Notes: generated from the letters alone by a model not told the origin. A stretch of DNA of 28,077 nucleotides from a virus (IMGVR_UViG_3300037067_017524:1-28077), one strand, 5' to 3'. Shown: positions 2,999-26,161, numbered from the stretch's first letter. Program-made: numbers and translations.

Positions 2999-3811
2999 AT
3001 GATAGAATTCATTCCGACAACTTGTTACGAATGTGGTGAACCTCTCAAAGTAACCACTGGTAAAAACGGCAAATATAAACTGATGTGTGTCAATACAGAT
3101 TGTTCTGGTATCGCAGTCAAAAAATTCCAAAAAGGTATGCTAGCTTTTGAAATTTCAGGAATTGGTCCAGCAACCTTCAAAAGTCTCTACAATGCAGGTA
3201 TTCGTGACATCGTGGGATTACTCACTATTACACCAGAAGAACTTGTTGCAAGTGGTGAGTTCAAGGATGGTAGAACTCTTGAAAAAATTATGGATTCCAT
3301 CTCATCTATTAAAAATATCAGATTGAGTGCTCTCATTGAATCACTCCAATTTGACAATGTAGGAAATACCATCAGCAAAGAACTTGAAAAATATATCTGT
3401 AATCTTCCTTATAATTTTGCAGGTATTGAATATTCTATCAGAGAAAAAATTGAAGATAAAAATTCTGATATGATGCTAAAAATATTTGAAGTAATCGATA
3501 ATCTTCAGACAATACCTAATATACAATTAATAACACCCATATCAAATAATATACAAACTAATACAGAAAATGTTATGAAAACAAGAATCATGGAAATGAC
3601 TGGTTCACCAAAAGAATTTGGTTTTGATACCAAAAAAGATTTTGTTACAGCTGTTGCTCCTTATGGAATAGTTGCAGGAACACTCAACAAAGATTGTTCT
3701 TTCTTAGTTACTGATGATTTATCATCCACAACTTCTAAGATGGAAAAGGCTACTAAACTTGGTGTACAAATTGTCACCTACGGTCAGTTAATTGAAATGT
3801 TAAATAAATAA
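2999..3811 (+). CDS. Stand-alone NAD-dependent DNA ligase C-terminal module (Cys4 Zn finger + HhH array + BRCT). No adenylation or OB domains
   Basis: CYECGEPLKV...YKLMCVNTDCSG matches the LigA Zn finger (CPVCGS...RCTGGLIC). GIGPATFKSLYNAGIRDIVGLLTITPEEL...LEKIMDSI aligns with the LigA HhH region. MTGSPKEFGFDTKKDFVTAVAPYGIVAGTLNKDCSFLVTDD...KLGVQIVTYGQLIEML matches the LigA BRCT domain (LTGSL...[21 protein letters not shown]...ELGIEVIDEAEMLRLL). Confidence 0.75.
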   Translation: MIEFIPTTCYECGEPLKVTTGKNGKYKLMCVNTDCSGIAVKKFQKGMLAFEISGIGPATFKSLYNAGIRDIVGLLTITPEELVASGEFKDGRTLEKIMDSISSIKNIRLSALIESLQFDNVGNTISKELEKYICNLPYNFAGIEYSIREKIEDKNSDMMLKIFEVIDNLQTIPNIQLITPISNNIQTNTENVMKTRIMEMTGSPKEFGFDTKKDFVTAVAPYGIVAGTLNKDCSFLVTDDLSSTTSKMEKATKLGVQIVTYGQLIEMLNK

Positions 3812-5660: not shown

Positions 5661-7151
5661 ATGGATATATTAAAAACATTTATCAGCTTGACCGATTATA
5701 CATATGGATTTGGTGAAGAGGCTGAATTGCTACCCAAGCTACCCAAGGACTTAAAAGAAGATTCTCAGGGAAATTATTATATGGAAATCGGTGAAACTGA
5801 ATCAATGTTCTGTTGTCACTTAGATACTGCTGCATGGGAAAAGGAAAAAGTTACTCATGATGTGTTTACAACTAAAAAGGGAGATACTGGTGTTGGTACA
5901 AGTGGTGATACTATCCTAGGTGCAGATGATAAAGCTGGTGTTGTCATTTTAATGAATATGATAGAGCATAATATACCCGGACTTTATTATTTTTTCATCG
6001 GTGAAGAAAGTGGTGGAGTGGGCTCAAAGGGTATCGTAAGAAGAGAACCAAAAAAATTCGAAAAATATAAAAGATGTATTGCATTTGACCGTAGAGATTA
6101 TGGATCTATTATAACAAAACAAATGGGTCGAGCTTGTTGTTCAGAAAAATTTGCTGATGCTTTAATTGCTCAATTTGATGCAGCTAACATGCCACACAAA
6201 CAAGATCCCTTTGGTGTTTATACTGACTCTGCTAATTTTGTTGATATTATATCAGAATGTACTAACCTATCAGTAGGATATTTCAATGAACATAGCATAA
6301 GTGAAGTTATAAATATAACATATTTGGAAGAATTATGTGAAGCAACATTGAAAGTAAAATGGGAAGAATTACCTGCAGTTCGTGAGATAAAATCATTAGA
6401 CTCACCTAACCCAGTGAGAGGACAGAAAAGAGCAGGAGATTTGGATGACGATACTTTAGAAGAAATATTTTTTGATGTCGATGATTTATTAGAAGAAATA
6501 ATTCATATGTATTGTTTTAATTTTGATAATTTCATGCCGGAAAAAGAAATGATTTATTTAGATTATTATAATGATTATAGAAAGTTATCTGTTTATATTC
6601 ATGAAAATGGTTCAATAACAATAGGTAAAAGTAAATTTGAAACTTACGAACATTTAGTTACTGAATTGAAAAAATACCATAATTTTAATTTAGAAAAAAT
6701 ACAATCTAAACGAAAAAAATCAGAAGAAGAGGAAGAAGTGCCTAGTAATGCAGATGAATATCATGATTGGATTACTAAAAGTTCTCAAAAAGATGAAGAA
6801 CCACCTTGGTGGACTCAAGAAAACGATGATGAATTCAATGATGATGACGATATTAATATAGATTATTTTGAAATAACTAATAATGTTCAATATAAAGATT
6901 TAGGTAAGTCCTTTACTAAAGGTATGGACATTCAAGATTTTATTTTTGAAGTACTGAGTGTGGCTTACGAGAAAGGAACTAAATACATACTACCAGAAGA
7001 AATGATTAAAATACTCAATTCCAAAAATAAAACTAAGGAATCATTCATAATGTGGTTAAAAGATAGAGGTAATAATCCAGATAAAACCTATGGGTTATCT
7101 TGGAATCAAGGAAAAAGAGTATTTCAAATAGACGTTGACGATTTACAATGA
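5661..7151 (+). CDS. M20/M42-type metallopeptidase-like protein with an acidic C-terminal extension
   Basis: FCCHLDTAAW (HxD metal ligand), ILGADDKAGVVILM (GADDKAG signature), IGEESGGVGSKG (Glu-Glu catalytic/metal pair). Residues about 250-400 are strongly acidic (DE-rich). Confidence 0.6.
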   Translation: MDILKTFISLTDYTYGFGEEAELLPKLPKDLKEDSQGNYYMEIGETESMFCCHLDTAAWEKEKVTHDVFTTKKGDTGVGTSGDTILGADDKAGVVILMNMIEHNIPGLYYFFIGEESGGVGSKGIVRREPKKFEKYKRCIAFDRRDYGSIITKQMGRACCSEKFADALIAQFDAANMPHKQDPFGVYTDSANFVDIISECTNLSVGYFNEHSISEVINITYLEELCEATLKVKWEELPAVREIKSLDSPNPVRGQKRAGDLDDDTLEEIFFDVDDLLEEIIHMYCFNFDNFMPEKEMIYLDYYNDYRKLSVYIHENGSITIGKSKFETYEHLVTELKKYHNFNLEKIQSKRKKSEEEEEVPSNADEYHDWITKSSQKDEEPPWWTQENDDEFNDDDDINIDYFEITNNVQYKDLGKSFTKGMDIQDFIFEVLSVAYEKGTKYILPEEMIKILNSKNKTKESFIMWLKDRGNNPDKTYGLSWNQGKRVFQIDVDDLQ

Positions 7152-7181
7152 AAAAAGGAAGTTTTTTACTTCCTTTTTTTA
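7151..7181. terminator. Bidirectional rho-independent terminator between convergent genes
   Basis: aaaaaaggaagt-ttttt-acttccttttttt is a perfect 8-bp GC-containing stem (7155-7162 / 7168-7175) flanked by an A-run on one side and a T-run on the other. Confidence 0.7.
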
Positions 7182-7730
7182 TTCTTTTAAAGATTTTATT
7201 TTATCACGAATTTCTGCTGCTTGCATATAATCTTCTTCTTGAACACACTCAATCATTTTATCGTTCAATACTTTTATCTTAATACTATTGTATTCAGTAT
7301 TATGTGAATTATAATTTTTTATCAAATCATAGAATGATTCTCTATACTGATACATTATAGAATTAATATATTCTTTAAAACTATGTTCACTACCTATAAA
7401 TTGTATAAGAGTCTGTTTTATTTCTTCGTTTTGATTTTTATCTATCTCATCTAATTTTTCATAAATATGATAAAATTCTTTTATCATTATATGAAAAAAA
7501 CTTCGTGGAATATTTAATGTTAAATATTGATTTGTGTTTTCTAACGTACCTTCAGCAATAAGTATTCCATTCTGATTGAACACATTGGGATTATTAGCTA
7601 ATATGTTAGTTATGAAATATATAAGTATGGGATTTTGTTTATCTAGTTTTTTTTGATTCCACAAACCCATGATACTCATGTAATTTATTACAATCTTGTT
7701 GATTCTTTTAATGGTAGCTTCTTTCATCAT
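7179..7730 (-). CDS. Hypothetical protein with a C-terminal UVR-like motif
   Basis: The C-terminus ...CVQEEDYMQAAEIRDKIKSLKE resembles the UvrB/UvrC UVR domain consensus (EE-yE-AA-lRD-I--L). Confidence 0.45.
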   Translation of the reverse strand: MMKEATIKRINKIVINYMSIMGLWNQKKLDKQNPILIYFITNILANNPNVFNQNGILIAEGTLENTNQYLTLNIPRSFFHIMIKEFYHIYEKLDEIDKNQNEEIKQTLIQFIGSEHSFKEYINSIMYQYRESFYDLIKNYNSHNTEYNSIKIKVLNDKMIECVQEEDYMQAAEIRDKIKSLKE

Positions 7731-7812
7731 AATCTATATTTTTTACAAAGATAATTATAAATGTTGTAAAATACAATAGTTTTTTAATTATATATATTTA
7801 ATAAATAAATTT

Positions 7813-7842
7813 GTTGAATTAAATAAAAAAGTTGAATTAAAT
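7813..7842 (+). repeat. 12-bp direct repeat gttgaattaaat x2 (18-bp period) in the sheath upstream region
   Basis: Copies at 7813-7824 and 7831-7842. TAaaTTTG sits at 7806-7813 and the 15-mer tttaatatataatgt at 7845-7859. Confidence 0.5.
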
Positions 7843-7895
7843 ATTTAATATATAATGTAAAATATTACGGATATAAAAAATAAACCTTAATAAAA

Positions 7896-10800
7896 ATGCC
7901 AATACAAGAGAAAGATTTAGGAAAATACAAAAGACCAGCAATCTACATCAATGAGATTGATAATTCCATAATAGAACTGCCAGCACAGAACGTACTAATC
8001 AATTTAGTACCTGGATTTTCTAAAAAAGGACCTTATAATAGACCCGTCTATGTAGATAATACTGTGGATTTTGAAAGAATTTATGGTACAATTGATAAAC
8101 AATTGGAAAATAAGGGTTCATTCTTCCAAAGAACGTGTGAGAAGATGTTAGCAACAGGTCCAATATGGGCACTTAACTTGTTATCAACAGTACCTAACAG
8201 GGATGTACTTAATTATGTTGCGGTTTCAACCTCAGCCCTTTATGAAAATTCCGATTTTACTAGCCAATATCAGTCTGATTATGAGAATTTTTTCAATAGA
8301 CAAGATTTCTGGACTAGAGATGAAGATGCATTCCAAGATTTAGTTGATGATAGTGGACTTAATCCAAACGATTTGTTACACTTGACCAATATGGGGGATA
8401 AAACAATAACTACATTTCTATGGAAATCAACCATAACTGGATTTGATGTAACAGCAAGTGAATGGTATGGTGGAGACACAAAAGTTCCTACTTATATTGA
8501 CCCAAAATCACTTATATCTGATTATTTGGTAACGGTATTAATACTTGGTGGTGATTGGACGGACTATAAAACATTAAGTGTTGATTCAACATGGTCACAA
8601 TATTTTGATTTAAATGGTCTTATAATTACTAGTATACAAGATTTTGTAAATGAGACGGGTGTTGTTGTATTGGGTAGCTACGATGTTTCTTTGATTCCTA
8701 ACTTTAAAGACTTAAATAGTCGTGATATGTATATTGAGTCAGTATTAAATAATAATACAGACCAAACAAGTCTATTTTGTACTTATAATCAAGATTTATT
8801 ATTAGATAATGATTATCTTTCAGATTTAGTTGATTTGGTTGGTAATACAATAGTAGGAGTAGATGTTGAAAATATCAGTTTCTTATCATATGAACAAAGC
8901 ATTAAAGAAATGAGGACATATCCTTTGGAATATCTTGATTCAGCAAACAACGTGTTTGGTACTGCTAATTTTAATGCTCAGACACATGAATGGAATAACT
9001 GGACACAATCAGGTATTACATCAGCACTGTTCACATCGGGTGCAACAACTGGTTCAACTAGTACATTATCATTCACATTAGGAACACCAGCACAATATAT
9101 AATAAATGGAGTGGTTTATCCTCTTACCGTCGGTAGTGTGGATATAACTGCTTTAGCAAGTGGTTACAAAAGATTAGATGTTATCTATTTGGATAGTACT
9201 GGTCTTCATGTAATGGACGGTACAACAACTTTAAGTGGTGCAACAACAGTCAGCAAAGAAATAACATTTACTAACACTAATACCATAATTTTAGGTACGT
9301 TGTTAGTAACTAATACTGGAGCAGCATTGACGGGTTCTTATACGATTATAACGGGTGATGTGGATACGGTTTCAATTTTAACATCAACTGGAATAACAGG
9401 AACAGATAGTTGGCTTAAAATTGAATTCCTCGGAACATCGGGTTCAACATTAAAAAATAGTGAATATCTTAGATTAAGAGCCCAAAAAGTTTATACTGAA
9501 GTATCTACAAATTTATCTGCAAATGAAGGTGTAATAATCAAGAATGACGGTAATTTAAAAACCGAAGTTGTTGCAACATCAAATACATTTACAACAACAT
9601 CAAACTCACAGATATTGATTTGGCTTGATTCACCTGCTGACTACAAATCGGGCACAACTAGTGTGTTGTTATATTATGTTGATAAACAATTCAAGTTAGC
9701 AGCTTCAATTACAGCTGGAACAAAAATTATTACAACAAACGATTTAACTCAACCAAATATAGTATCTAAATATTCTAGCTTTTATACTGATTTCTTTGAT
9801 GGTGTAATTAATACAGATGATACAATATCGGGCACAACTGCTAAATTATTGATGTATATTGATACTTTAGGTATATTAACAGTTACATTAGATCAAGATA
9901 TATCTGTTGTAGATAGTATTACAGTATCATCAAATATTGGAAATTGGAGACAAACTGTAGAGATAGACTCATTTGAAGGAAATGATATGACAAATATCGT
10001 AGCTATTCATGTTGATAAAAATAGATATTCAGAATTGATTAGAGGTATGTATCTTGAGTCATATTATGATGCAGCTTATTATACTGCTCCATCTGGTGAA
10101 GGTTATATCAAGGGTGATACAGTACCAAGAAAATTGGTCAGAATCGTAAACATAAAGAATGATACCGTTGATACAACTATGAAAATTCTTTATACGGATG
10201 GTCCAATTAAAATATCGTACGCATCTGGATTAACAGAAATGTACACAACATCTTATCCTGCTGTTTACAACTACGCAACCAATCTTAAAGGTATTGCTCT
10301 CAAACCATTTGTAGTACATACAGACTCAATCCCTGATGGAACTGAAACTAGACAAAATACTATATTAAATGTTTTAGCTAAAAACACAGCTATTTACAAA
10401 GGTTTAATAAACAGAAATAAAATTTCTTGGAGATATTTAGTAGACTCGTTTGGTTTGGGGTTGACAGAAAATTCAAAACAACAATATGTTGATCTTTGTG
10501 GTGACAAGTTGAGTTGTGTTGGATTCATAAATATGCCAAGTGCAAAACAATTTAAAAAATCAACCAATCCAAGTTTCACAAATACTGATGGTTCATTGAG
10601 CACAACATATATGAAAGAAGGTGCTAACCAAGACAAAAACCCAGATTTTCTTTATTCATATGGTACTGGTGTTGGTCGTTCAACAGTTGGTTATTTCTTT
10701 CCATATTGTAAGGTTGCAACCGATGGTATTACAGCTTCTGTTCCACCAGCAGCTTACGCAGCAACAGCTTATATGAGAAAATTCACTACAGCAACCGCAG

Positions 10801-11327
10801 GTGTTCAACCTTGGACAATTGTTGCAGGTGTTAATATGGGTAGAGTTCCTGATATTTCTGGTACAGAAATGGACTTTTCAAACGATGATTTGGACAACTT
10901 CTCAGATATGGGATGTAACCCTATTACATTTATAAGAAATGTTGGTTATATAATTAATGACGAAAACACTGCACAAGTATTTCCAGTATCATCATTGAGT
11001 TATTTACATTCAAGAGAAGTTTTAATTGAACTTGAAAAAGATCTTTATGATATGTTACTTAGATATCAATGGAAATTCAATACTCCGACAATTAGATCAG
11101 AAATTAAATATAGAGCTGATAAAATTTGTCAAGGATATGTAGACTCAGTTGGTTTATATGCTTACAGAAATGTAATGGATGAAACCAACAATACCAATTA
11201 TATCATTGATCTACAAGGTGGTGTGTTAGACACGTATATCGAAATTACACACGGCATGGGATGGATTGTTAATAATATCACAATTGAAAAAACTGGAACT
11301 ATTAATTCAACTGGTTTTCAACAATAA
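7896..11327 (+). CDS. Contractile tail sheath protein (1143 aa, with large inserted domains)
   Basis: The N-terminus KRPAIYINEIDNS matches the myovirus sheath signature (PGVYI-E-D-S). The C-terminal region DMGCNPITFIRNVGYIIN aligns with the T4 gp18 INPVTG...RINVRRLF segment. The central Thr/Ser-rich beta region of about 450 aa is extra relative to T4 gp18 (659 aa). Confidence 0.85.
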   Translation: MPIQEKDLGKYKRPAIYINEIDNSIIELPAQNVLINLVPGFSKKGPYNRPVYVDNTVDFERIYGTIDKQLENKGSFFQRTCEKMLATGPIWALNLLSTVPNRDVLNYVAVSTSALYENSDFTSQYQSDYENFFNRQDFWTRDEDAFQDLVDDSGLNPNDLLHLTNMGDKTITTFLWKSTITGFDVTASEWYGGDTKVPTYIDPKSLISDYLVTVLILGGDWTDYKTLSVDSTWSQYFDLNGLIITSIQDFVNETGVVVLGSYDVSLIPNFKDLNSRDMYIESVLNNNTDQTSLFCTYNQDLLLDNDYLSDLVDLVGNTIVGVDVENISFLSYEQSIKEMRTYPLEYLDSANNVFGTANFNAQTHEWNNWTQSGITSALFTSGATTGSTSTLSFTLGTPAQYIINGVVYPLTVGSVDITALASGYKRLDVIYLDSTGLHVMDGTTTLSGATTVSKEITFTNTNTIILGTLLVTNTGAALTGSYTIITGDVDTVSILTSTGITGTDSWLKIEFLGTSGSTLKNSEYLRLRAQKVYTEVSTNLSANEGVIIKNDGNLKTEVVATSNTFTTTSNSQILIWLDSPADYKSGTTSVLLYYVDKQFKLAASITAGTKIITTNDLTQPNIVSKYSSFYTDFFDGVINTDDTISGTTAKLLMYIDTLGILTVTLDQDISVVDSITVSSNIGNWRQTVEIDSFEGNDMTNIVAIHVDKNRYSELIRGMYLESYYDAAYYTAPSGEGYIKGDTVPRKLVRIVNIKNDTVDTTMKILYTDGPIKISYASGLTEMYTTSYPAVYNYATNLKGIALKPFVVHTDSIPDGTETRQNTILNVLAKNTAIYKGLINRNKISWRYLVDSFGLGLTENSKQQYVDLCGDKLSCVGFINMPSAKQFKKSTNPSFTNTDGSLSTTYMKEGANQDKNPDFLYSYGTGVGRSTVGYFFPYCKVATDGITASVPPAAYAATAYMRKFTTATAGVQPWTIVAGVNMGRVPDISGTEMDFSNDDLDNFSDMGCNPITFIRNVGYIINDENTAQVFPVSSLSYLHSREVLIELEKDLYDMLLRYQWKFNTPTIRSEIKYRADKICQGYVDSVGLYAYRNVMDETNNTNYIIDLQGGVLDTYIEITHGMGWIVNNITIEKTGTINSTGFQQ

Positions 11328-11343
11328 TCAGTTGATTAGATTT

Positions 11344-11376
11344 AAAAAACCACTAAATATTTTTAGTGGTTTTTTT
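11344..11376 (+). terminator. Rho-independent terminator after the sheath gene
   Basis: aaccactaaa (11348-11357) / tttagtggtt (11362-11371), loop tatt, then T-run. The same stem arms are re-used at 13645-13675. Confidence 0.7.
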
Positions 11377-11426
11377 ATTAAACTTCTTCATAATTTTTAA
11401 TATATAAGTATTAAATCATCCTATAT

Positions 11427-13280
11427 ATGAAAGAAATATTATTTGAAACCGATCCATCTGGTAAATATTCGAAATCAGATTATTTAAAAAAGAATCATAT
11501 TGATTTATATAATGATATCATTATATATGCAGAGAAAAATAATATAGCAGATATACTATTCAAAGAAAAAGTTTATTGTTACAAATATAATATACTTCCA
11601 CCAATTTGTAAAAATCCAATATGTAATAATAAAGTTCAATTTAGAAATTCAACAATCGGATATGAAGAATATTGTTCTAATAAATGTATTGGGACAGATC
11701 CAATAATTCAGAAACGAAAAGAGGAGAAATCATTAAAAAAATTTGGAACAAAAACACCTGCTGAATCACAGATTATTAAAGAGAAAATGATTCAAACAAA
11801 TAATAAAAAATATGGAAGTAATTCTCCATTACAGAATAATGAAATACATAAAAAAAGTCAACAAACATTAATGAATAATTATGGTGTTGATAGCCCTCTG
11901 AAATCTAAAGAAATACAATCAAAACGATTAAGTCATTTTGATATTGATAAGTGGAGAATAAAATTTGAAGCAACAATGATGAGTAAGTATGGTGTTAAAA
12001 ATGCTCTACAGAATAAAGAAATAATGAATAAAACTAGAGAGACTAATATTAAAAGATATAATTGTGAATATCCAAGTCAGAATAAAGAAATAATTAAGAA
12101 AATATTAAGTAGTAGAAATGAAAAAGATTGGCAAGACAATTTAGAAAAAAATATGTTAAATTTATATGGTGTTAAAAATTCAATGGGTGTAAAATCTTTT
12201 AGAGATAAAATATCGATAACACAAAGAAATAAAGAAAAAAAGATAAATCCAAATATAATAGATATAGATTTAGAAAATAAACAATATATTATGAGATGTG
12301 ATTGTGGTCAAGATCATGATTTTTCAATATTATTTTCACTATATAAAAGTCGAAAATTTTTTGCCTCAAATTATTGTACTGTTTGCTTTCCACCACATAA
12401 AAACAGCATATCTCAATTGGAAACAGAATTATTTAATTTTATAGAAGATAATTATAAAGATGAAATAATATTAAATAAAAAATCTATTATACCTCCATAT
12501 GAATTAGATATTTATTTACCCGAAATAAAAATAGCTTTTGAATTTAATGGAGTTTATTGGCATAATGAATTAAATAAACCCGAAAATTATCATAAAATGA
12601 AAAGTGATTTGTGTGATAAAAAAAATATTCAACTTATACATATATACGAAGATGATTGGGTTTATAAGAAAGACATAGTTAAATCTATTATCTTAAATAA
12701 AATCGGTAAAACACTAGAAAAAATATATGCCAGAAAAACCACAATTGAAGAAATTGATAATAAACAATTAAGAATTTTCTTAAGCGAGAATCATTTACAG
12801 GGATATGTAAATTCTAAAATTAATATAGGATTATCTTATAATAATGAATTAATATCCGTGATGACGTTTGGTAAAAAAAGAAAAAGCATGAATTCTAATT
12901 CAGCAGAAAATGAATACGAAATGTTAAGATTTTGTAATAAGTTAAATATTAATGTAGTAGGTGGAGCATCCAAATTATTTAATTATTTTATTAAAAAATA
13001 TAATCCTAAAGAGATTATAAGTTATGCCGACAGAAGCCATTCTAATGGAAATTTATATAAACAATTAAAATTTAATTATATAGGCATAACTGAACCCAAT
13101 TATTATTATGTTGTGGATGATATTCGTAAACATCGTTTTGGATTTAGAAAAGACGTATTGATTAAACAAGGTTTTGATAAGGATAAATCAGAACATGATA
13201 TAATGTTAGAAAGAAAAATTTATCGAATTTATAACTCAGGTAATTACAAATTTATATATAATAATAAAAATATTAAATAA
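11427..13280 (+). CDS. Free-standing homing-endonuclease-like protein (Hef/DUF559-type PD-(D/E)XK) with an N-terminal Cys cluster, six tandem ~25-35-aa repeats and a C-terminal extension of unknown function
   Basis: Repeats of the form (K/N)YG-x3-(P/A)-x-Q-x-KEI-x2-K-x3-T appear six times. The nuclease core ELDIYLPEIKIAFEFNGVYWHNE...IQLIHIYEDDW is paralogous to ORF 267-1121. The gene lies between the sheath and tube genes, a classic homing-endonuclease location. Confidence 0.7.
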   Translation: MKEILFETDPSGKYSKSDYLKKNHIDLYNDIIIYAEKNNIADILFKEKVYCYKYNILPPICKNPICNNKVQFRNSTIGYEEYCSNKCIGTDPIIQKRKEEKSLKKFGTKTPAESQIIKEKMIQTNNKKYGSNSPLQNNEIHKKSQQTLMNNYGVDSPLKSKEIQSKRLSHFDIDKWRIKFEATMMSKYGVKNALQNKEIMNKTRETNIKRYNCEYPSQNKEIIKKILSSRNEKDWQDNLEKNMLNLYGVKNSMGVKSFRDKISITQRNKEKKINPNIIDIDLENKQYIMRCDCGQDHDFSILFSLYKSRKFFASNYCTVCFPPHKNSISQLETELFNFIEDNYKDEIILNKKSIIPPYELDIYLPEIKIAFEFNGVYWHNELNKPENYHKMKSDLCDKKNIQLIHIYEDDWVYKKDIVKSIILNKIGKTLEKIYARKTTIEEIDNKQLRIFLSENHLQGYVNSKINIGLSYNNELISVMTFGKKRKSMNSNSAENEYEMLRFCNKLNINVVGGASKLFNYFIKKYNPKEIISYADRSHSNGNLYKQLKFNYIGITEPNYYYVVDDIRKHRFGFRKDVLIKQGFDKDKSEHDIMLERKIYRIYNSGNYKFIYNNKNIK

Positions 13281-13281
13281 A

Positions 13282-13638
13282 ATGATAACGGATTATAATA
13301 ATTTTCAACAATTAAATGAAAACGTTGAATTGACAGATGATGAAAAAGAATATTTATGGACTAAAATAGAATATAAGAAAAAACAAAGAGCTATATCAAC
13401 TGAAAATGAATTATTTAATTTATTGAATAGTAATAAAAATAGTTTTAATAACAATGAATTTAATATCATCTTAAATTCATTAGAATATACATTTAGAAAG
13501 AAATTAAAAGGATTTGATAATCCGATAAGAAATGATATATTTTTGAAAATAAAGGATAAAATTCCAGAAGATTGGATTGGAATTAAATATTCATCTATTG
13601 AATCTAAAAAAAGAAAAGATGAAAAAGATAATCCGTAG
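13282..13638 (+). CDS. Hypothetical protein (118 aa), part of the inserted cassette
   Basis: ORF starts 2 nt after the endonuclease stop. The N-terminus MITDYNNFQQLNE weakly resembles the capsid-targeting-sequence-like motif discussed in the findings. Confidence 0.45.
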   Translation: MITDYNNFQQLNENVELTDDEKEYLWTKIEYKKKQRAISTENELFNLLNSNKNSFNNNEFNIILNSLEYTFRKKLKGFDNPIRNDIFLKIKDKIPEDWIGIKYSSIESKKRKDEKDNP

Positions 13639-13644
13639 ATTATG

Positions 13645-13675
13645 AACCACTAAATATAAATTTAGTGGTTTTTTA
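13645..13675 (+). terminator. Rho-independent terminator, second copy of the sheath terminator stem
   Basis: aaccactaaat (13645-13655) / atttagtggtt (13660-13670), loop ataa, then T-run. Confidence 0.7.
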
Positions 13676-13783
13676 TTAATTAAAAAATGAAAATATACAT
13701 TTAATATATAATGTTATTAAAATAAGATTTCAAAAATAATAATTAGAAATTTTATATATAGTAAAAAAATAATAAATGTAATT

Positions 13784-14347
13784 ATGCCGCTTCCACACTT
13801 TACAAACATAGCAAGTCACCACGAGAATTGGGAACCTGTATTTAAGAATTTATTTGAAGTAGAAATTTTTCTACCAGATGCAATCAGAGATAGACACCCA
13901 AATGCTCCTGAGTTGTTACTAGAGAACACTACTAAAGCTAAGTTACCAGTGTATCCAACTTTAGGTAATGTCGCTCAAAGATACAAATATTCAACTAGAT
14001 TATTTGTTGGATTCCCAGAATCAACATCAATTCCGGATTTAGGTCTTACATTTAACATAAACCAAAATGATAATAAACAAATGTTTACATTTAGAATTAT
14101 CAAAGACTGGTACGACTTACTATGGAATAACGAAGATGGTTCTTCTAACTATAAAAGAAATGTAGTTGGTGAGATTATACTATATCAACATGATAGAGAA
14201 GGTGAAATCATAAGACGTGTTACTTTCCACAACTGTCAGATTACTGGATTCCAAGATGGTGGAGATTTAGTATGGGGTGGTGGACAAGAAATCATGGAAC
14301 TCTCAGCAACATGGACGTGTGATTATTGGGAAGATTATTATTTCTAA
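13784..14347 (+). CDS. Tail tube protein (T4 gp19 family)
   Basis: NLFEVEIFLPD matches T4 gp19 NLFQVEISYLG. The C-terminal ...MELSATWTCDYWEDYYF matches the gp19 C-terminus ...EVTLALDYWE. The length of 187 aa is typical (T4 gp19 is 163 aa). Confidence 0.88.
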   Translation: MPLPHFTNIASHHENWEPVFKNLFEVEIFLPDAIRDRHPNAPELLLENTTKAKLPVYPTLGNVAQRYKYSTRLFVGFPESTSIPDLGLTFNINQNDNKQMFTFRIIKDWYDLLWNNEDGSSNYKRNVVGEIILYQHDREGEIIRRVTFHNCQITGFQDGGDLVWGGGQEIMELSATWTCDYWEDYYF

Positions 14348-14359
14348 TAATGATAATTA

Positions 14360-14387
14360 AAAACTCTCTTTTTGAGAGTTTTTTTTT
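14360..14387 (+). terminator. Strong rho-independent terminator after the tube gene
   Basis: aaaactctc (14360-14368) / gagagtttt (14374-14382), loop ttttt, then T7 run. Confidence 0.75.
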
Positions 14388-14401
14388 ATAAAATAAATTT
14401 G
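14371..14401 (+). promoter_or_regulatory. Candidate Bacteroidota-type promoter for the HNH gene, embedded in the tube terminator
   Basis: TTTG at 14371-14374, a 19-nt spacer, then TAAATTTG at 14394-14401. The ATG is at 14438. Confidence 0.4.
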
Positions 14402-14437: not shown

Positions 14438-15112
14438 ATGGAAGAAAGAAAAGTATGTAAAAAATGCAATATCGAGAAAGATATATCTCATTTCTCTAAA
14501 AAGTACAAAACTAATGACAACACTCAAAGATATCAATCTTTTTGTAAAGAGTGTGTTAATAAAGAAGCAACAATAAGACGAAGTACACTCGAATATAAAG
14601 AAAATAGATCTAAATATGATAAATTATATTATGATTTAAATAAAGAAAAAGTGCTCAAAAGAAAAAAGAATTATCATATAAAAAATAAAGAGATTATACT
14701 TCAAAAGAAACAAATATATCGTAGTAAGCCAGAAAATAGGGAGAGAGCTAAGCTCTATATTAAAGATTATATGAAAAATAATAGAGAAAAATATTATGAG
14801 TATAGAAGAAAAAGTCCACATATAATAGCATGGCGACAGCTATTACATAGAACACTCCGTTATTTAGGAACTAAAAAAGAAGAACATACTCAAGAAATAT
14901 TGGGATATTCAGCAGTTCAGTTGAAGCATCACATCGAAAAACAATTCAAAGAAAATATGTCTTGGGAAAATTACGGGGAATGGGAAATAGATCATATCAA
15001 ACCATTGACTTCATTTGACGTGAGTTCAAATCCAAGTGAAGTTAATGCTTTATCTAACTTACAACCATTGTGGAAAGAAGAAAACATTACTAAATATAAT
15101 CATATTTTATAA
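14438..15112 (+). CDS. HNH homing endonuclease with an N-terminal zinc-binding module
   Basis: N-terminus CKKCNIEKDISHFSKK...CKEC. C-terminus EWEIDHIKPLTSF...NALSNLQPLWKEEN is the HNH motif (DH...N...N-LQ-L). It lies immediately downstream of the tube gene. Confidence 0.8.
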   Translation: MEERKVCKKCNIEKDISHFSKKYKTNDNTQRYQSFCKECVNKEATIRRSTLEYKENRSKYDKLYYDLNKEKVLKRKKNYHIKNKEIILQKKQIYRSKPENRERAKLYIKDYMKNNREKYYEYRRKSPHIIAWRQLLHRTLRYLGTKKEEHTQEILGYSAVQLKHHIEKQFKENMSWENYGEWEIDHIKPLTSFDVSSNPSEVNALSNLQPLWKEENITKYNHIL

Positions 15113-15190
15113 TTTTTTATTAAAATAATATTTCATAACTAATTGATAAATATAAAAATATATTAATAATTAAAAAAAAGAATAAAAATA

Positions 15191-15222
15191 TTTGGTGATT
15201 TAAGAAAATATTTTTAATTTTG
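15191..15222 (+). promoter_or_regulatory. Candidate Bacteroidota-type promoter (TTTG-N20-TAATTTTG) carrying a palindromic aaaatatttt core
   Basis: TTTG at 15191-15194 and TAnnTTTG at 15215-15222. The 17-mer atttaagaaaatatttt (15198-15214) is repeated at 16033-16049 upstream of the MVP gene. Confidence 0.4.
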
Positions 15223-15347
15223 TCATCCTAAAATATTTTAATAATATGAATTAAATATAAAAAATTAAACTTTTTCTTAAAAACATACAATAGAGATATA
15301 ATAATATGTAATTAAACACAAAAAATTAATTAATTTAAAACAAGAAA

Positions 15348-15938
15348 ATGATGAAGAAAATTTTATTAGTATTAACAGCCATTTCGATGTCTGTAATTTT
15401 CACAAGTTGTGGTAAAGTACCACAAGCACAAATTGACACTACTAATGCAGCAATCGAAGCTGCAAAAACTGCTGAAGCACCTGTTTATTTACCAGTTGAA
15501 TTTACAGCTCTGCAAGATTCAATGAATGTAATTATGACTGAAGTTGAAGTACAGAATGGGAAACTATTCAAGAAATTCGGTGATATTAAGATTAAATTAG
15601 ATTCTACACTAGCTCTCGCTATCAAGTTAAATGCTGATGTAATTATTAAGAAAGAAGAAGTTAGAAAAGAATCTGAAACATTATTAATATCAACTAAAAC
15701 CATTACCCAAGAAAATTCAAAACTTATACTTAAAGCTCCAAGAGGAAAGGAAGGTGCTATTGTTCTTGTACAAATAAAATCAGATATATCAACAATTGAT
15801 TCAACTATCACTGAAGCTCAAGGTTCTTATGATAAAGGTTTATATATGGAGACATTAAATAAAATAAAAGCTGCAAATGAAAGTGCAACAAAAATAAATA
15901 CCGAACTGAAAGAAGCTATCGCCAAAGTACGAAGATAA
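15348..15938 (+). CDS. Putative lipoprotein, alpha-helical/coiled-coil
   Basis: MMKKILLVLTAISMSVIFTSCGK is a signal peptide with a lipobox (FTSC). The rest is Ala/Lys/Glu-rich with heptad character. Confidence 0.55.
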   Translation: MMKKILLVLTAISMSVIFTSCGKVPQAQIDTTNAAIEAAKTAEAPVYLPVEFTALQDSMNVIMTEVEVQNGKLFKKFGDIKIKLDSTLALAIKLNADVIIKKEEVRKESETLLISTKTITQENSKLILKAPRGKEGAIVLVQIKSDISTIDSTITEAQGSYDKGLYMETLNKIKAANESATKINTELKEAIAKVRR

Positions 15939-25998: not shown

Positions 25999-26161
25999 AT
26001 TAAATTATATTTTTCTTAAAATAAAATCTCTATATATTCAGTTTAGTGGATTAATTTTTATTTATATATTAAAACCAAATAGTTGAAAAATTTAATAAAT
26101 TATTTTTCAAAAATAAATCGTTGAATATTTATATATAAGAATAAATTGGACAAGATTAGAT

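Follow-up and report, generated by a model that had tools for sequence, protein, structure and literature searches.

A putative Hef-like endonuclease cassette in the gap between the sheath and tube genes of an uncultured phage, bracketed by two copies of a terminator-like hairpin

Introduction

How does the gene of an endonuclease come to lie between two genes of a phage tail, and why should the same hairpin stand at both of its ends? Both questions are raised by a 28,077-nucleotide (nt) stretch of viral DNA, IMGVR_UViG_3300037067_017524:1-28077 (hereafter the window, by which the whole stretch is meant), where the region 11344-13675, located between the genes for the tail sheath and the tail tube, holds the gene of a Hef-like endonuclease of 617 amino acids (aa), a companion gene of 118 aa (orf118), and two hairpins with identical stem arms, one on either side of the gene pair. 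An earlier note, made from the sequence alone, had read this arrangement as the footprint of a mobile insertion that duplicated, or brought along, the sheath terminator, and had likened the locus to a homing hot spot. The site was compared across ~25 related contigs (L-numbered below), and the comparison supports the reading of the insert as a free-standing endonuclease cassette, polymorphic among relatives, in a hot spot that appears to be hyperplastic in a general sense. We consider it probable that the cassette, which comprises its own promoter-like box, the Hef-like gene and orf118, is a selfish element lodged in the gap between two conserved and highly expressed late genes.

The phage to which the window belongs is a large, AT-rich, uncultured myophage and distant kin of the 630-735 kb "huge phages". 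Its nearest counterparts in GenBank are unannotated huge phage assemblies of that size (LR756501-4 and LR745206), whose sheath proteins are ~45% identical at the amino acid level, and the relatives that stand closer to it (55-92% aa) come from metagenomes, as contigs that reach 248 kb. The significance of the repeated hairpin pattern was assessed with 100 dinucleotide-preserving shuffles, that of folding with 200 shuffles and that of local alignment with 2000 shuffles; conservation within the Hef family was read from an alignment of 49 sampled homologues.

Occupants of the sheath-tube site

The left conserved flank of the site is the tail sheath gene (7896-11327, + strand; 1143 aa), which matches phrog_34521 (E 3.5e-77) and whose last 300 aa have homologues that carry Pfam PF04984 (Phage_sheath_1)/PF17482. 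The right conserved flank is the tail tube gene (13784-14347, + strand; 187 aa), which matches phrog_45 (E 1.7e-10) and phrog_32623 (E 2.9e-16). Across relatives, the sheath is 55-76% and the tube 68-100% identical at the amino acid level.

If the cassette had entered an ancestral arrangement of sheath, terminator and tube, as the earlier note proposed, one should be able to find relatives in which the junction is empty and carries a single hairpin. Five distinct relatives do have such an empty site, composed of sheath, one hairpin, promoter region and tube: L001 (LR756501), L005, L009 (the same as L010), L023 and L040. In the four closer ones (L005, L009, L023 and L040) the hairpin is plainly homologous to that of the window (AAAACCCACTA...TAGTGGGTTTT, for example AAAAACCCACTAAAAATTTTTAGTGGGTTTTT), and L040 is the relative with the closest sheath (86% aa) among those with a full junction. 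The proposed ancestral order matches this arrangement; in addition, two hairpins without intervening genes were found in no relative, nor is the hairpin a repeat spread through the genome, as described below.

In other relatives the same site is filled. The Hef-like gene stands alone in L028 (the same as L007 and L020), L030, L031-33 and L041, is accompanied by one reverse open reading frame (ORF) in L006 and by two reverse ORFs in the distant huge phage L002, and is followed by an orf118 homologue in L034, L013/14/22, L037/38 and L029, as it is by orf118 itself in the window. A different nuclease gene, encoding DUF723 treble-clef zinc fingers and a PD-(D/E)XK domain, takes the place of the cassette in L025 and L019, the former having a tube that is 100% identical (aa) to that of the window over the first 110 aa and a sheath C-terminus that is 92.5% identical. 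Both nucleases occur in tandem in L037, in the order sheath, hairpin, Hef, orf120, hairpin, DUF723 gene, tube, and unrelated ORFans occupy the site in L008 and L011/12/21. The non-nuclease occupants of L008, L011, L006 and L002 gave no informative family matches. Two of these alleles, an exact copy of the window cassette (L018) and the DUF723 occupant (L019), come from one and the same metagenome, Ga0172381.

A related observation concerns L013 (also L014 and L022), where a 974-aa ORF (L013:3630-6554) consists of a DUF723 zinc-finger/PD-(D/E)XK nuclease fused in frame to a complete Hef-like endonuclease; the two are separate genes, in the opposite order, in L037.

The boundaries of the site are the same throughout. 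All Hef-carrying loci share a left junction of the form hairpin, TTTTTTATTAAAC, 10-20 nt, TTTTATATATAAGTA(T/A)(T/A)AAA, ~15 nt, ATG, and all loci keep the elements upstream of the tube (AAAAATGA box, TTTAATATATAAT, ATTTTATATATA), which places the insertion point after the sheath terminator and before the tube promoter region, in the short stretch that separates them. Five distinct empty sites and at least ten occupied ones, delimited on the left by the hairpin and TTTTTTATTAAAC and on the right by the AAAAATGA box, represent a presence/absence polymorphism at one precise site. The 315/319-aa gene that follows the sheath in L003/L004 was considered as a further insertion and rejected, being a homologue of window gene 20543-21496 and a difference in gene order. 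Homologues of that gene (phrog_36717), rather than the tube, follow the sheath or the Hef cassette in L029:2551-5849, L003:9113-10060 and L004:9132-10091; in L004 the tube gene lies inverted ~1.4 kb downstream, which shows that the wider clade has no fixed order of genes around the sheath.

The repeated hairpin and its surrounding module

The recurrence of one hairpin with the same stem arms and a different loop, which first drew attention to the locus, is exact: the pattern AACCACTAAA-N(2-8)-TTTAGTGGTT has two matches in the window, at 11348-11371 and 13645-13670, both on the + strand, and was matched in 0 of 100 shuffles. Hairpin 1 (11348-11371), which follows the sheath gene, has a core stem of 10 bp (AACCACTAAA/TTTAGTGGTT) and the loop TATT, is lengthened to 14 bp (11344-11375) by flanking A/T runs, and folds with -15.1 kcal/mol (z -5.6). 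Hairpin 2 (13645-13670) has an 11-bp stem (AACCACTAAAT/ATTTAGTGGTT), the loop ATAA and, after it, TTTTATT, and folds with -13.9 kcal/mol (z -4.9); an equally good fold was reached in 0 of 200 shuffles for either of them. Both are stable stem-loops with a T-run (tails of T6-7) on the 3' side of a gene, which is the form of a rho-independent terminator, and they can be predicted to act as intrinsic terminators. Scans of the whole window with Rfam, at gathering thresholds, and for tRNAs revealed no known RNA element.

The likeness of the two copies goes beyond their stems. Local alignment pairs 11337-11415 with 13636-13721 over ~80 nt, with a score of 53 against 24 +/- 3.4 (maximum 40) in 2000 shuffles, and 13636-13721 is the best match in the whole contig to the first intergenic region. 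The shared module has the order TAGATT, hairpin, T-run and ATTAA, a spacer of variable length, and TTTAATATATAA(T)G(T)TATTAAA. In copy 1 (11337-11415, + strand), which reads TAGATT, hairpin, T-run ATTAA, spacer and TTTAATATATAAGTATTAAA, the left part runs collinear with the 3' flank of the sheath gene in relatives (L025, L028 and L040 have the GATTAG motif), and the right part (TTTTTTATTAAAC...TATATAAGTA) does so with the left junction found in every relative that carries Hef. Copy 2 (13636-13721, + strand) opens with the TAG that serves as the stop codon of orf118 and is collinear, from the hairpin on, with the full intergenic region of the empty-site relatives, in which hairpin, TTTTTTATTAAT, AAAAATGA box, TTTAATATATAAT, ATTTTATATATA and ATG follow each other. 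As judged from these alignments, the structure of the region is formally module, Hef, orf118, module, tube, and recombination between the two modules would regenerate the empty site.

The module does not belong to a dispersed family. The remaining terminator-like hairpins of the 28 kb (at 7151, 14359, 15971 and 18629) all have stems that differ from those of hairpins 1 and 2; that of the tube gene (14359-14383, + strand; AAAAACTCTC/GAGAGTTTTT, -14.3 kcal/mol, z -5.4) is unrelated to them in sequence. A scan of all IMG/VR contigs for the hairpin pattern gave two occurrences only, in unrelated contexts, and a dispersed repeat is thereby ruled out. The right junction, from the Hef C-terminus through orf118 and hairpin 2 to the tube, is base-identical in short contigs of three other assemblies (one from JGI, two from ENA), and hairpin 2 is identical in the independent contigs L015-L018; since the junction recurs in three other assemblies, it is not an artefact of assembly.

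The second component of the module is a promoter-like box, TTTAATATATAA, which is found 20 nt upstream of the start codon of the Hef-like gene (11396-11407, + strand) and again ahead of the tube gene (13700-13711, + strand), where it is kept in all relatives, whatever the occupant of the site. The window contains seven exact copies (at 236, 7844, 11396, 13700, 20401 and 21842 on the + strand, and at 26062 on the - strand), each of them 20-120 nt upstream of a gene start, those of the sheath, Hef-like and tube genes included; with at most one mismatch the number rises to 13, against 3.9 expected. A TATATAAGTA(T/A)(T/A)AAA box precedes the Hef-like genes of L006, L013, L028, L029, L030 and L041. 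The TTTAATATATAA box is probably the phage's own promoter, possibly a late one.

Hairpins in relatives and the age of the duplication

An orthologous hairpin follows the sheath in every relative, and 19 hairpins from relatives have perfect or near-perfect stems of 11-19 bp and a T-run. Their stem sequences vary (CCCACTAAA, CCCACTGAAT, CCCTACTA, CCTTATAA, CCTCATAAATTA and others), each change in one arm being matched on the other, and these compensated changes support the notion of a functional sheath terminator. In four further lineages the cassette likewise ends in a hairpin: L028/L007 (CCTACTA/TAGTAGG, which differs from the lineage's own hairpin 1 by one compensated pair and has the Hef stop codon inside it), L006 (CCTTACTA/TAGTAAGG), L034 (TCCCATTAAATA) and L037/38 (AAAAACCCACTATA..., with an outer stem identical to that of its own hairpin 1). 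To judge from the CC(C/T)ACTA core that they share, the downstream hairpin seems to be an old paralogue of the sheath terminator, one that was later lost in some lineages.

The resemblance between the two copies of the window seems to have a different age. Both have a derived CCAC/GTGG stem where relatives have CCCAC/GTGGG, a total of four concordant changes, and with Hef-like genes at the site that are 63-73% identical (aa) among relatives, the near-identity of the hairpins must be much younger than the arrival of the cassette. It could be due either to a recent re-duplication or to gene conversion between copies that lie 2.3 kb apart. The closest cassette relative, L034, is a contig of 1.8 kb that ends inside the Hef gene, its left junction falling beyond the contig; TCCCATTAAAT stems on both sides in that lineage, if true, would mean that the two copies evolve in concert. 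Hairpin 2 may thus be a paralogue of hairpin 1 that has been kept, or made again, by duplication or gene conversion, rather than a scar of the insertion itself.

The Hef-like endonuclease

The insert was described in the earlier note as a Hef-like PD-(D/E)XK endonuclease gene followed by a 118-aa ORF, and this description is borne out. The product of the first gene (11427-13280, + strand; 617 aa) matches phrog_3339 "homing endonuclease" (E 1.3e-129) over nearly the full length of the profile, residues 184-613 aligning with positions 107-535 of 536, and also phrog_559 (E 5e-77). More than 2224 Hef-like homologues were found. In GenBank, those of cultured phages bear the label of Hef-like homing endonuclease, a single genome having as many as 12, and one record labels its homologue "nuclease/acetyltransferase".

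Three regions can be recognized along the protein. The first (11607-12182, + strand) consists of a Cys4 zinc ribbon (C61, C66, C83 and C87, invariant or nearly so among the 49 homologues) and four DUF7487 repeats of ~36 aa with the consensus YG-x-x-x-P/A-L-x-x-x-E-I, which start at YG129, 152, 188 and 247. The Pfam match to DUF7487 has an E of 3.8e-24 (residues 70-168), and the domain is present in 49/49 homologues. Ribbon and repeats are presumed to form the DNA-binding region; a literature search on DUF7487 found nothing.

The second region (12294-12701, + strand) comprises a second Cys cluster (C291, C317 and C320) and a Vsr-like PD-(D/E)XK core, whose signature, E359/D361...E372-x-N-G-x-x-W-H379...H389-x-x-K392 (with N374, G375 and W378), is invariant or nearly so in the 49 homologues. 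The family profile matches PDB entry 3r3p, deposited as "Mobile intron protein", over the nuclease core with a marginal E of 0.0017, and Pfam matches of marginal significance were obtained for 8/49 homologues (MTES_1575 in six, DUF559 in two). With its catalytic acids and His in place, together with this marginal match to a solved member, the 617-aa protein can be classed by sequence among the Hef-like endonucleases, and its core as a Vsr-like PD-(D/E)XK nuclease. We take 3r3p to be I-Bth0305I, an enzyme encoded in an intron or intein. The likeness to the I-Bth0305I family lies in the nuclease core, which aligns with the 3R3P catalytic domain (D-x10-E-x-N-G-x-x-W-H region) over ~75 residues and at marginal significance; the window gene differs in being free-standing and in being fused to a further domain.

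This third region, aa 439-611 (12741-13259, + strand), is Mom-like. It matches Pfam Mom PF25680 with an E of 7e-6 and a score of 26.2 bits, which lies below the gathering cutoff of 27.1, and 10/49 homologues match the same family at E<0.01. An AlphaFold2 model of the domain (pLDDT 90.5), compared with the PDB by Foldseek, has Mom of phage Mu (8bv8) as its best match (E 2e-9, TM 0.60), followed by GNAT acetyltransferases (E 5e-6 and weaker); as modelled, the domain has a GNAT fold that is closest to Mu Mom. The residues known to be essential in Mu Mom are R111, S124, D149, R151 and Y159 (PMC13219725). An hhalign comparison, weak in itself (E 0.21), sets R501, S515, D535 and Y544 opposite R111, S124, D149 and Y159 (with (R536) for R151), and these are invariant or majority residues in the alignment of homologues. 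The fusion of a nuclease with Mom has already been noted in jumbo phages, where it was read as restriction coupled to protective "momylation" (PMC7824862).

The companion gene orf118

The second gene of the cassette (13282-13638, + strand) encodes a small helical protein of 118 aa that has no Pfam and no PHROG match. Its homologues (n=27) are all found within the window's phage clade, and they stand directly downstream of a Hef-like gene in L013/14/22, L029, L034, L037/38 and L035/36, as orf118 does in the window. The pair in L035/36 has a second genomic context, as would be expected of a moving unit. In L035:1-1898, the C-terminus of the Hef-like protein and an orf118 homologue (74% aa) are encoded just upstream of a 473-aa DNA polymerase B fragment, with a GIY-YIG endonuclease gene and a tRNA-synthetase-like gene nearby.

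An AlphaFold2 model of the orf118 product (pLDDT 81) gave no significant fold match when searched by Foldseek against the PDB and BFVD. The family has strongly conserved motifs (LTDDEKxYLWSKIEY, ILNSLEYTFRKKL and KIPEDWIGIKYSS) and no detectable relatives. In homologues P0137, P0138 and P0143-P0145, the protein has an extra C-terminal tail of 35-60 aa with a conserved K-x-E-L/I...L-I motif (alignment A3).

A probable mobile cassette and its alternatives

The arrangement of the locus could be accounted for by the following course of events. The ancestral state would have been sheath, intrinsic terminator, late promoter and tube, and the cassette would have come to lie just 3' of the terminator (at the junction between ATTAA and AC) and 5' of the tube promoter region with its AAAAATGA box. 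Free-standing homing endonucleases that have been characterised, the original Hef of phage U5 among them, suggest by analogy that the enzyme would cleave, near the site, the genomes of co-infecting relatives that lack the cassette, after which the cassette would be copied in by recombinational repair; the occurrence of different alleles in one metagenome (Ga0172381) could represent an opportunity for such spread in mixed infection. The endonuclease activity and the homing of the 617-aa protein are thus predicted from its sequence and from its analogues, much as the promoter and terminator functions are predicted from theirs. The match between the TTTAATATATAA box of the cassette and those of sheath and tube would imply late expression. 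The sheath terminator would stop upstream transcription before it reaches the cassette, and hairpin 2 would stop transcription of the cassette before the tube promoter. With the second ~80-nt module, sheath, cassette and tube would each possess a promoter and a terminator of their own, and the tube would keep its normal upstream region.

A number of observations weigh against this account, or narrow it. The left junction was seen in one assembly only, that of the window contig itself. The site also holds non-nuclease ORFans (L008 and L011/12/21, in addition to the extra genes of L006 and L002), which implies that insertion there does not require a homing endonuclease. No hairpin follows the cassette in the Hef carriers L013/14/22, L030 and L031-33, which indicates that insertion alone does not create the duplication, and that the insulating role of a second hairpin is either dispensable or otherwise met. 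Moreover, the site's Hef-like genes, at 63-73% aa identity among relatives, diverge in a star-like manner and as far as the sheath does (55-75%), with no sign of recent transfer. Composition offers little help: the G+C content falls to 0.21-0.24 over the cassette (0.24-0.26 over the HNH gene that follows the tube) against 0.30-0.35 in sheath and tube, but it is low in other non-structural genes too, for instance at 7000-8000, and the trough, real as it is, was set aside as a mark of foreign origin. Two claims of the earlier note emerge from this in modified form. The idea of an insertion footprint with a duplicated terminator holds in so far as a mobile-cassette polymorphism exists at the site, and fails in so far as several Hef carriers do without the second hairpin, which is not an obligatory scar. 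In the same manner, nucleases do alternate at the site as a homing hot spot would have it, while the acceptance of non-nuclease ORFans points to a general hyperplastic spot.

The modules themselves could be the agent, recombination between them moving the intervening gene in or out, whether between genomes in mixed infection or within one genome as an excised mini-circle, with the endonuclease as one passenger among others; such a scheme is possible, though we hold it to be doubtful. In its favour, the ~80-nt repeat includes a hairpin and a TTTAATATATAA box on both sides of the cassette and is a composite of terminator and promoter-like box, as PeSLs, the promoter-early stem-loop cassettes, are defined. 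In the PeSLs of T4-type phages (Arbiol et al. 2010, PMC2839356; Comeau et al. 2014, PMC4122927), as here, a stem-loop terminator and a promoter are repeated around a non-essential gene in a variable region that has conserved genes on either side. Recombining the two copies gives exactly the empty-site arrangement, the site accepts unrelated ORFans alongside nucleases, 44-nt repeats around a 90-aa ORF (2671-2943) provide a second case in the contig, and in L037 the Hef-orf120 unit stands between two terminator-like hairpins whose outer stem is the same. Against the scheme, the hairpin has only two copies in 28 kb, its IMG/VR matches being otherwise unrelated; the other terminators of the contig are all unique, so that recombination would find no dispersed family of homologous modules. 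What the two copies share is short (a core of ~45 nt), the promoter box is common to many genes, and most Hef-carrying relatives are without similar bracketing hairpins. Unlike the early sigma-70 promoters of PeSLs, a type of cassette that also features recombinant mini-circles, the promoter-like box is shared with structural, presumably late, genes. A different proposal, which we judge unlikely, is that the 617-aa protein is a single-chain conflict system, its Mom-like domain modifying the phage's own adenines and its nuclease attacking unmodified host or competitor DNA, so that patchiness reflects the turnover of an arms race. The structural proximity of the C-terminal domain to Mu Mom, the conservation of the residues aligned with R111, S124, D149 and Y159 (of the list in PMC13219725) and the label "nuclease/acetyltransferase" on one GenBank homologue all fit this proposal, and exactly this function has been put forward for fusions of Mom with a restriction-endonuclease fold in jumbo phages (Iyer et al. 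2021, PMC7824862). The architecture is the same, since in both cases a restriction-endonuclease-fold domain comes first and a Mom-like GNAT domain after it; the published reading is one of restriction and self-protective momylation (PMC7824862), whereas the alternation seen at the window's site is the behaviour of a homing gene, and the Mom score of the window protein lies under the Pfam cutoff. Against the proposal stand also the multiple copies of the family, in up to 12 places per genome, and its location in intergenic gaps beside conserved genes, in alternation with another nuclease at the same site, which is a signature of homing rather than of housekeeping modification. Conflict and homing are not mutually exclusive. 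A further point against the conflict reading is that the founding Hef of phage U5, whose architecture may differ from that of the window protein, is reported to have cut near its own gene and to have behaved as a homing element (Sandegren et al. 2005).

Somewhat less likely again is a vertical history, in which the cassette is ancestral, empty and otherwise occupied sites derive from secondary deletions or replacements, and nothing is mobile now. The age of the site's Hef-like genes, about as diverged as the flanks, speaks for such a history, as does the occurrence of a Hef-like gene (39% aa) after the sheath even in the distant huge phage LR756504, and the decay of the neighbouring HNH gene (a frameshift in L040, stubs in L008 and L037) would fit a cycle dominated by loss. 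Empty sites are nevertheless scattered over the tree, from the outgroup L001 to the close relative L040, and would call for many precise, independent deletions, each of them sparing terminator and promoter; in addition, the Hef-orf118 unit is found at another locus, a second nuclease family is found in the same gap, and Hef and flank similarities are discordant in places. This discordance is only mild (L013 and L029 share 73% in Hef against 59.5% in sheath, the window and L037 74.7% in sheath against 66.4% in Hef), and as a proof of transfer it was rejected, the identity matrices being star-like and the signal weak. We attach a lower probability still to a pair of linked ideas on how the cassette might immunise itself and how the repeat arose: the nuclease would cut at or next to the palindromic sheath terminator while the fused Mom-like domain, catalytically competent, acylates adenines of that site in its own genome, allowing the carrier to survive although it retains the target sequence, in the window twice over, and the ~45-nt direct repeat would be the interval between cleavage and insertion, duplicated in imprecise repair. 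That the two hairpins resemble each other by chance or convergent selection, or that the duplication is an artefact of assembly, can scarcely be maintained. The terminators of this AT-rich genome do share a general design of A-run, GC-poor stem and T-run, and contigs of other samples break inside the Hef gene; but the pattern was matched in 0/100 shuffles, the likeness reaches outside the stem to a length of ~80 nt with a score of 53, where 2000 shuffles reached 40 at most, all other terminators differ, and three independent assemblies agree exactly in hairpin 2 and its junctions. The explanation that we prefer remains a free-standing selfish endonuclease cassette, polymorphic among relatives.

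Comparison with known homing genes

The genes with which the cassette may be compared are the Hef and "Hef-like" endonucleases of T4-related, ViI-like, Campylobacter and jumbo phages. The window member belongs with them by its phrog_3339 match (E 1e-129), by tblastn matches to genes annotated as Hef-like in RaK2, CP30A, PA5oct-like and other phages, and by its free-standing, intergenic position beside conserved genes. A similar position has been described in Dickeya phage LIMEstone1, whose Hef-like genes F-LimIII, VII, VIII and X include one, F-LimVIII, that adjoins the tail tube gene (PMC3296691). The window member differs from other Hef in its long N-terminal extension of zinc ribbons and four DUF7487 repeats, in the 118-aa gene that travels with it, and in the closing copy of the neighbour's terminator. 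The locus also recalls the seg/mob hot spots of T4, since nucleases of different families (Hef-like, DUF723/PD-(D/E)XK and HNH) replace each other or stack in the same gaps, with presence, absence and decay; it differs from them in its nuclease families and its phage lineage.

Neighbouring genes and other features of the window

The tube gene is flanked on its other side by a gene (14438-15112, + strand) for an HNH-type endonuclease of 224 aa, which matches phrog_1035 "endonuclease VII" (E 1.2e-16) and has the C-terminal motif EIDHIKPL...N...NLQPLWKEEN; searches gave no Pfam match at E<=0.1 and no PDB match by sequence, and the assignment is based on the one PHROG and the motif. The gene is present in L001, L005, L006, L009, L019 and L030 and absent in L007 and L011-14, and a DUF723 gene takes its place in L031-33. 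The remark of the earlier note that two different endonuclease genes flank the tube is therefore correct, and both are polymorphic among relatives. Stages of decay of the HNH gene can be seen beside the tube, namely a frameshift (L040:1761-2428) and short C-terminal remnants (L008:5188-5364 and L037:8911-8970).

Further downstream, a 196-aa ORF (15348-15938, + strand) with a lipoprotein-like N-terminus (MMKKILLVLTAISMSVIFTSC) lies between the HNH gene and a gene for an 827-aa protein (16137-18620, + strand). The ORF is found in L040 (78% aa) and not in L007, L009 and L010, where the tube or HNH gene directly precedes the latter gene, and it represents another variable insert. The 827-aa protein matches the Major Vault Protein shoulder (E 9e-27), Vault_3 (E 2e-10) and SPFH/Band_7; it looks like a vault-like protein from the phage structural-gene cluster, and its gene is kept just downstream of the tube/HNH genes in L007, L009 and L010 (74-84% aa).

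A second small gene bracketed by repeated regulatory modules is the 90-aa ORF at 2671-2943, which lies between two direct repeats of 44 nt (2612-2655 and 2938-2981; 89% identical). A third copy of the repeat (15185-15228) stands upstream of the lipoprotein-like ORF 15348-15938. Each 44-nt repeat holds the pattern TTTG-N20-TAnnTTTG, which occurs seven times in the window against 1.55 expected; one of these matches (14371-14401) lies 37 nt ahead of the HNH start and overlaps the tube terminator. We take TTTG-N20-TAnnTTTG to be a promoter pattern of the Bacteroidota type and, as such, a hint of a Bacteroidota host. Two other features deserve mention. A 270-aa ORF (2999-3811, + strand) corresponds to only the C-terminal part of an NAD-dependent DNA ligase (phrog_3869, positions 391-654 of 656) and may be a truncated or split ligase, and two adjacent genes (21958-23079 and 23086-24183, + strand) of 373 and 365 aa, which have no family matches, share a 133-nt stretch that is 81% identical, in the manner of tandem paralogues.

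Implications

No element of the locus is new in kind, given that Hef-like free-standing endonucleases, fusions of Mom with a restriction endonuclease and PeSL-like repeats are all known; its interest lies in an unusually complete allelic series. The site may be regarded as a natural experiment in how a phage genome can be colonised by selfish nuclease genes and remain unharmed: sheath and tube, which are sensitive to stoichiometry, would keep their own transcription signals, and in several lineages the far end of the cassette bears a copy of its neighbour's terminator. The series of alleles, which comprises the empty site, Hef, Hef with its companion, the other nuclease, both nucleases together and both fused, offers ready substrates with which the target of a Hef-like enzyme could be found, and the same substrates could be used to probe the role that a Mom-like DNA-modification domain plays in a homing enzyme.

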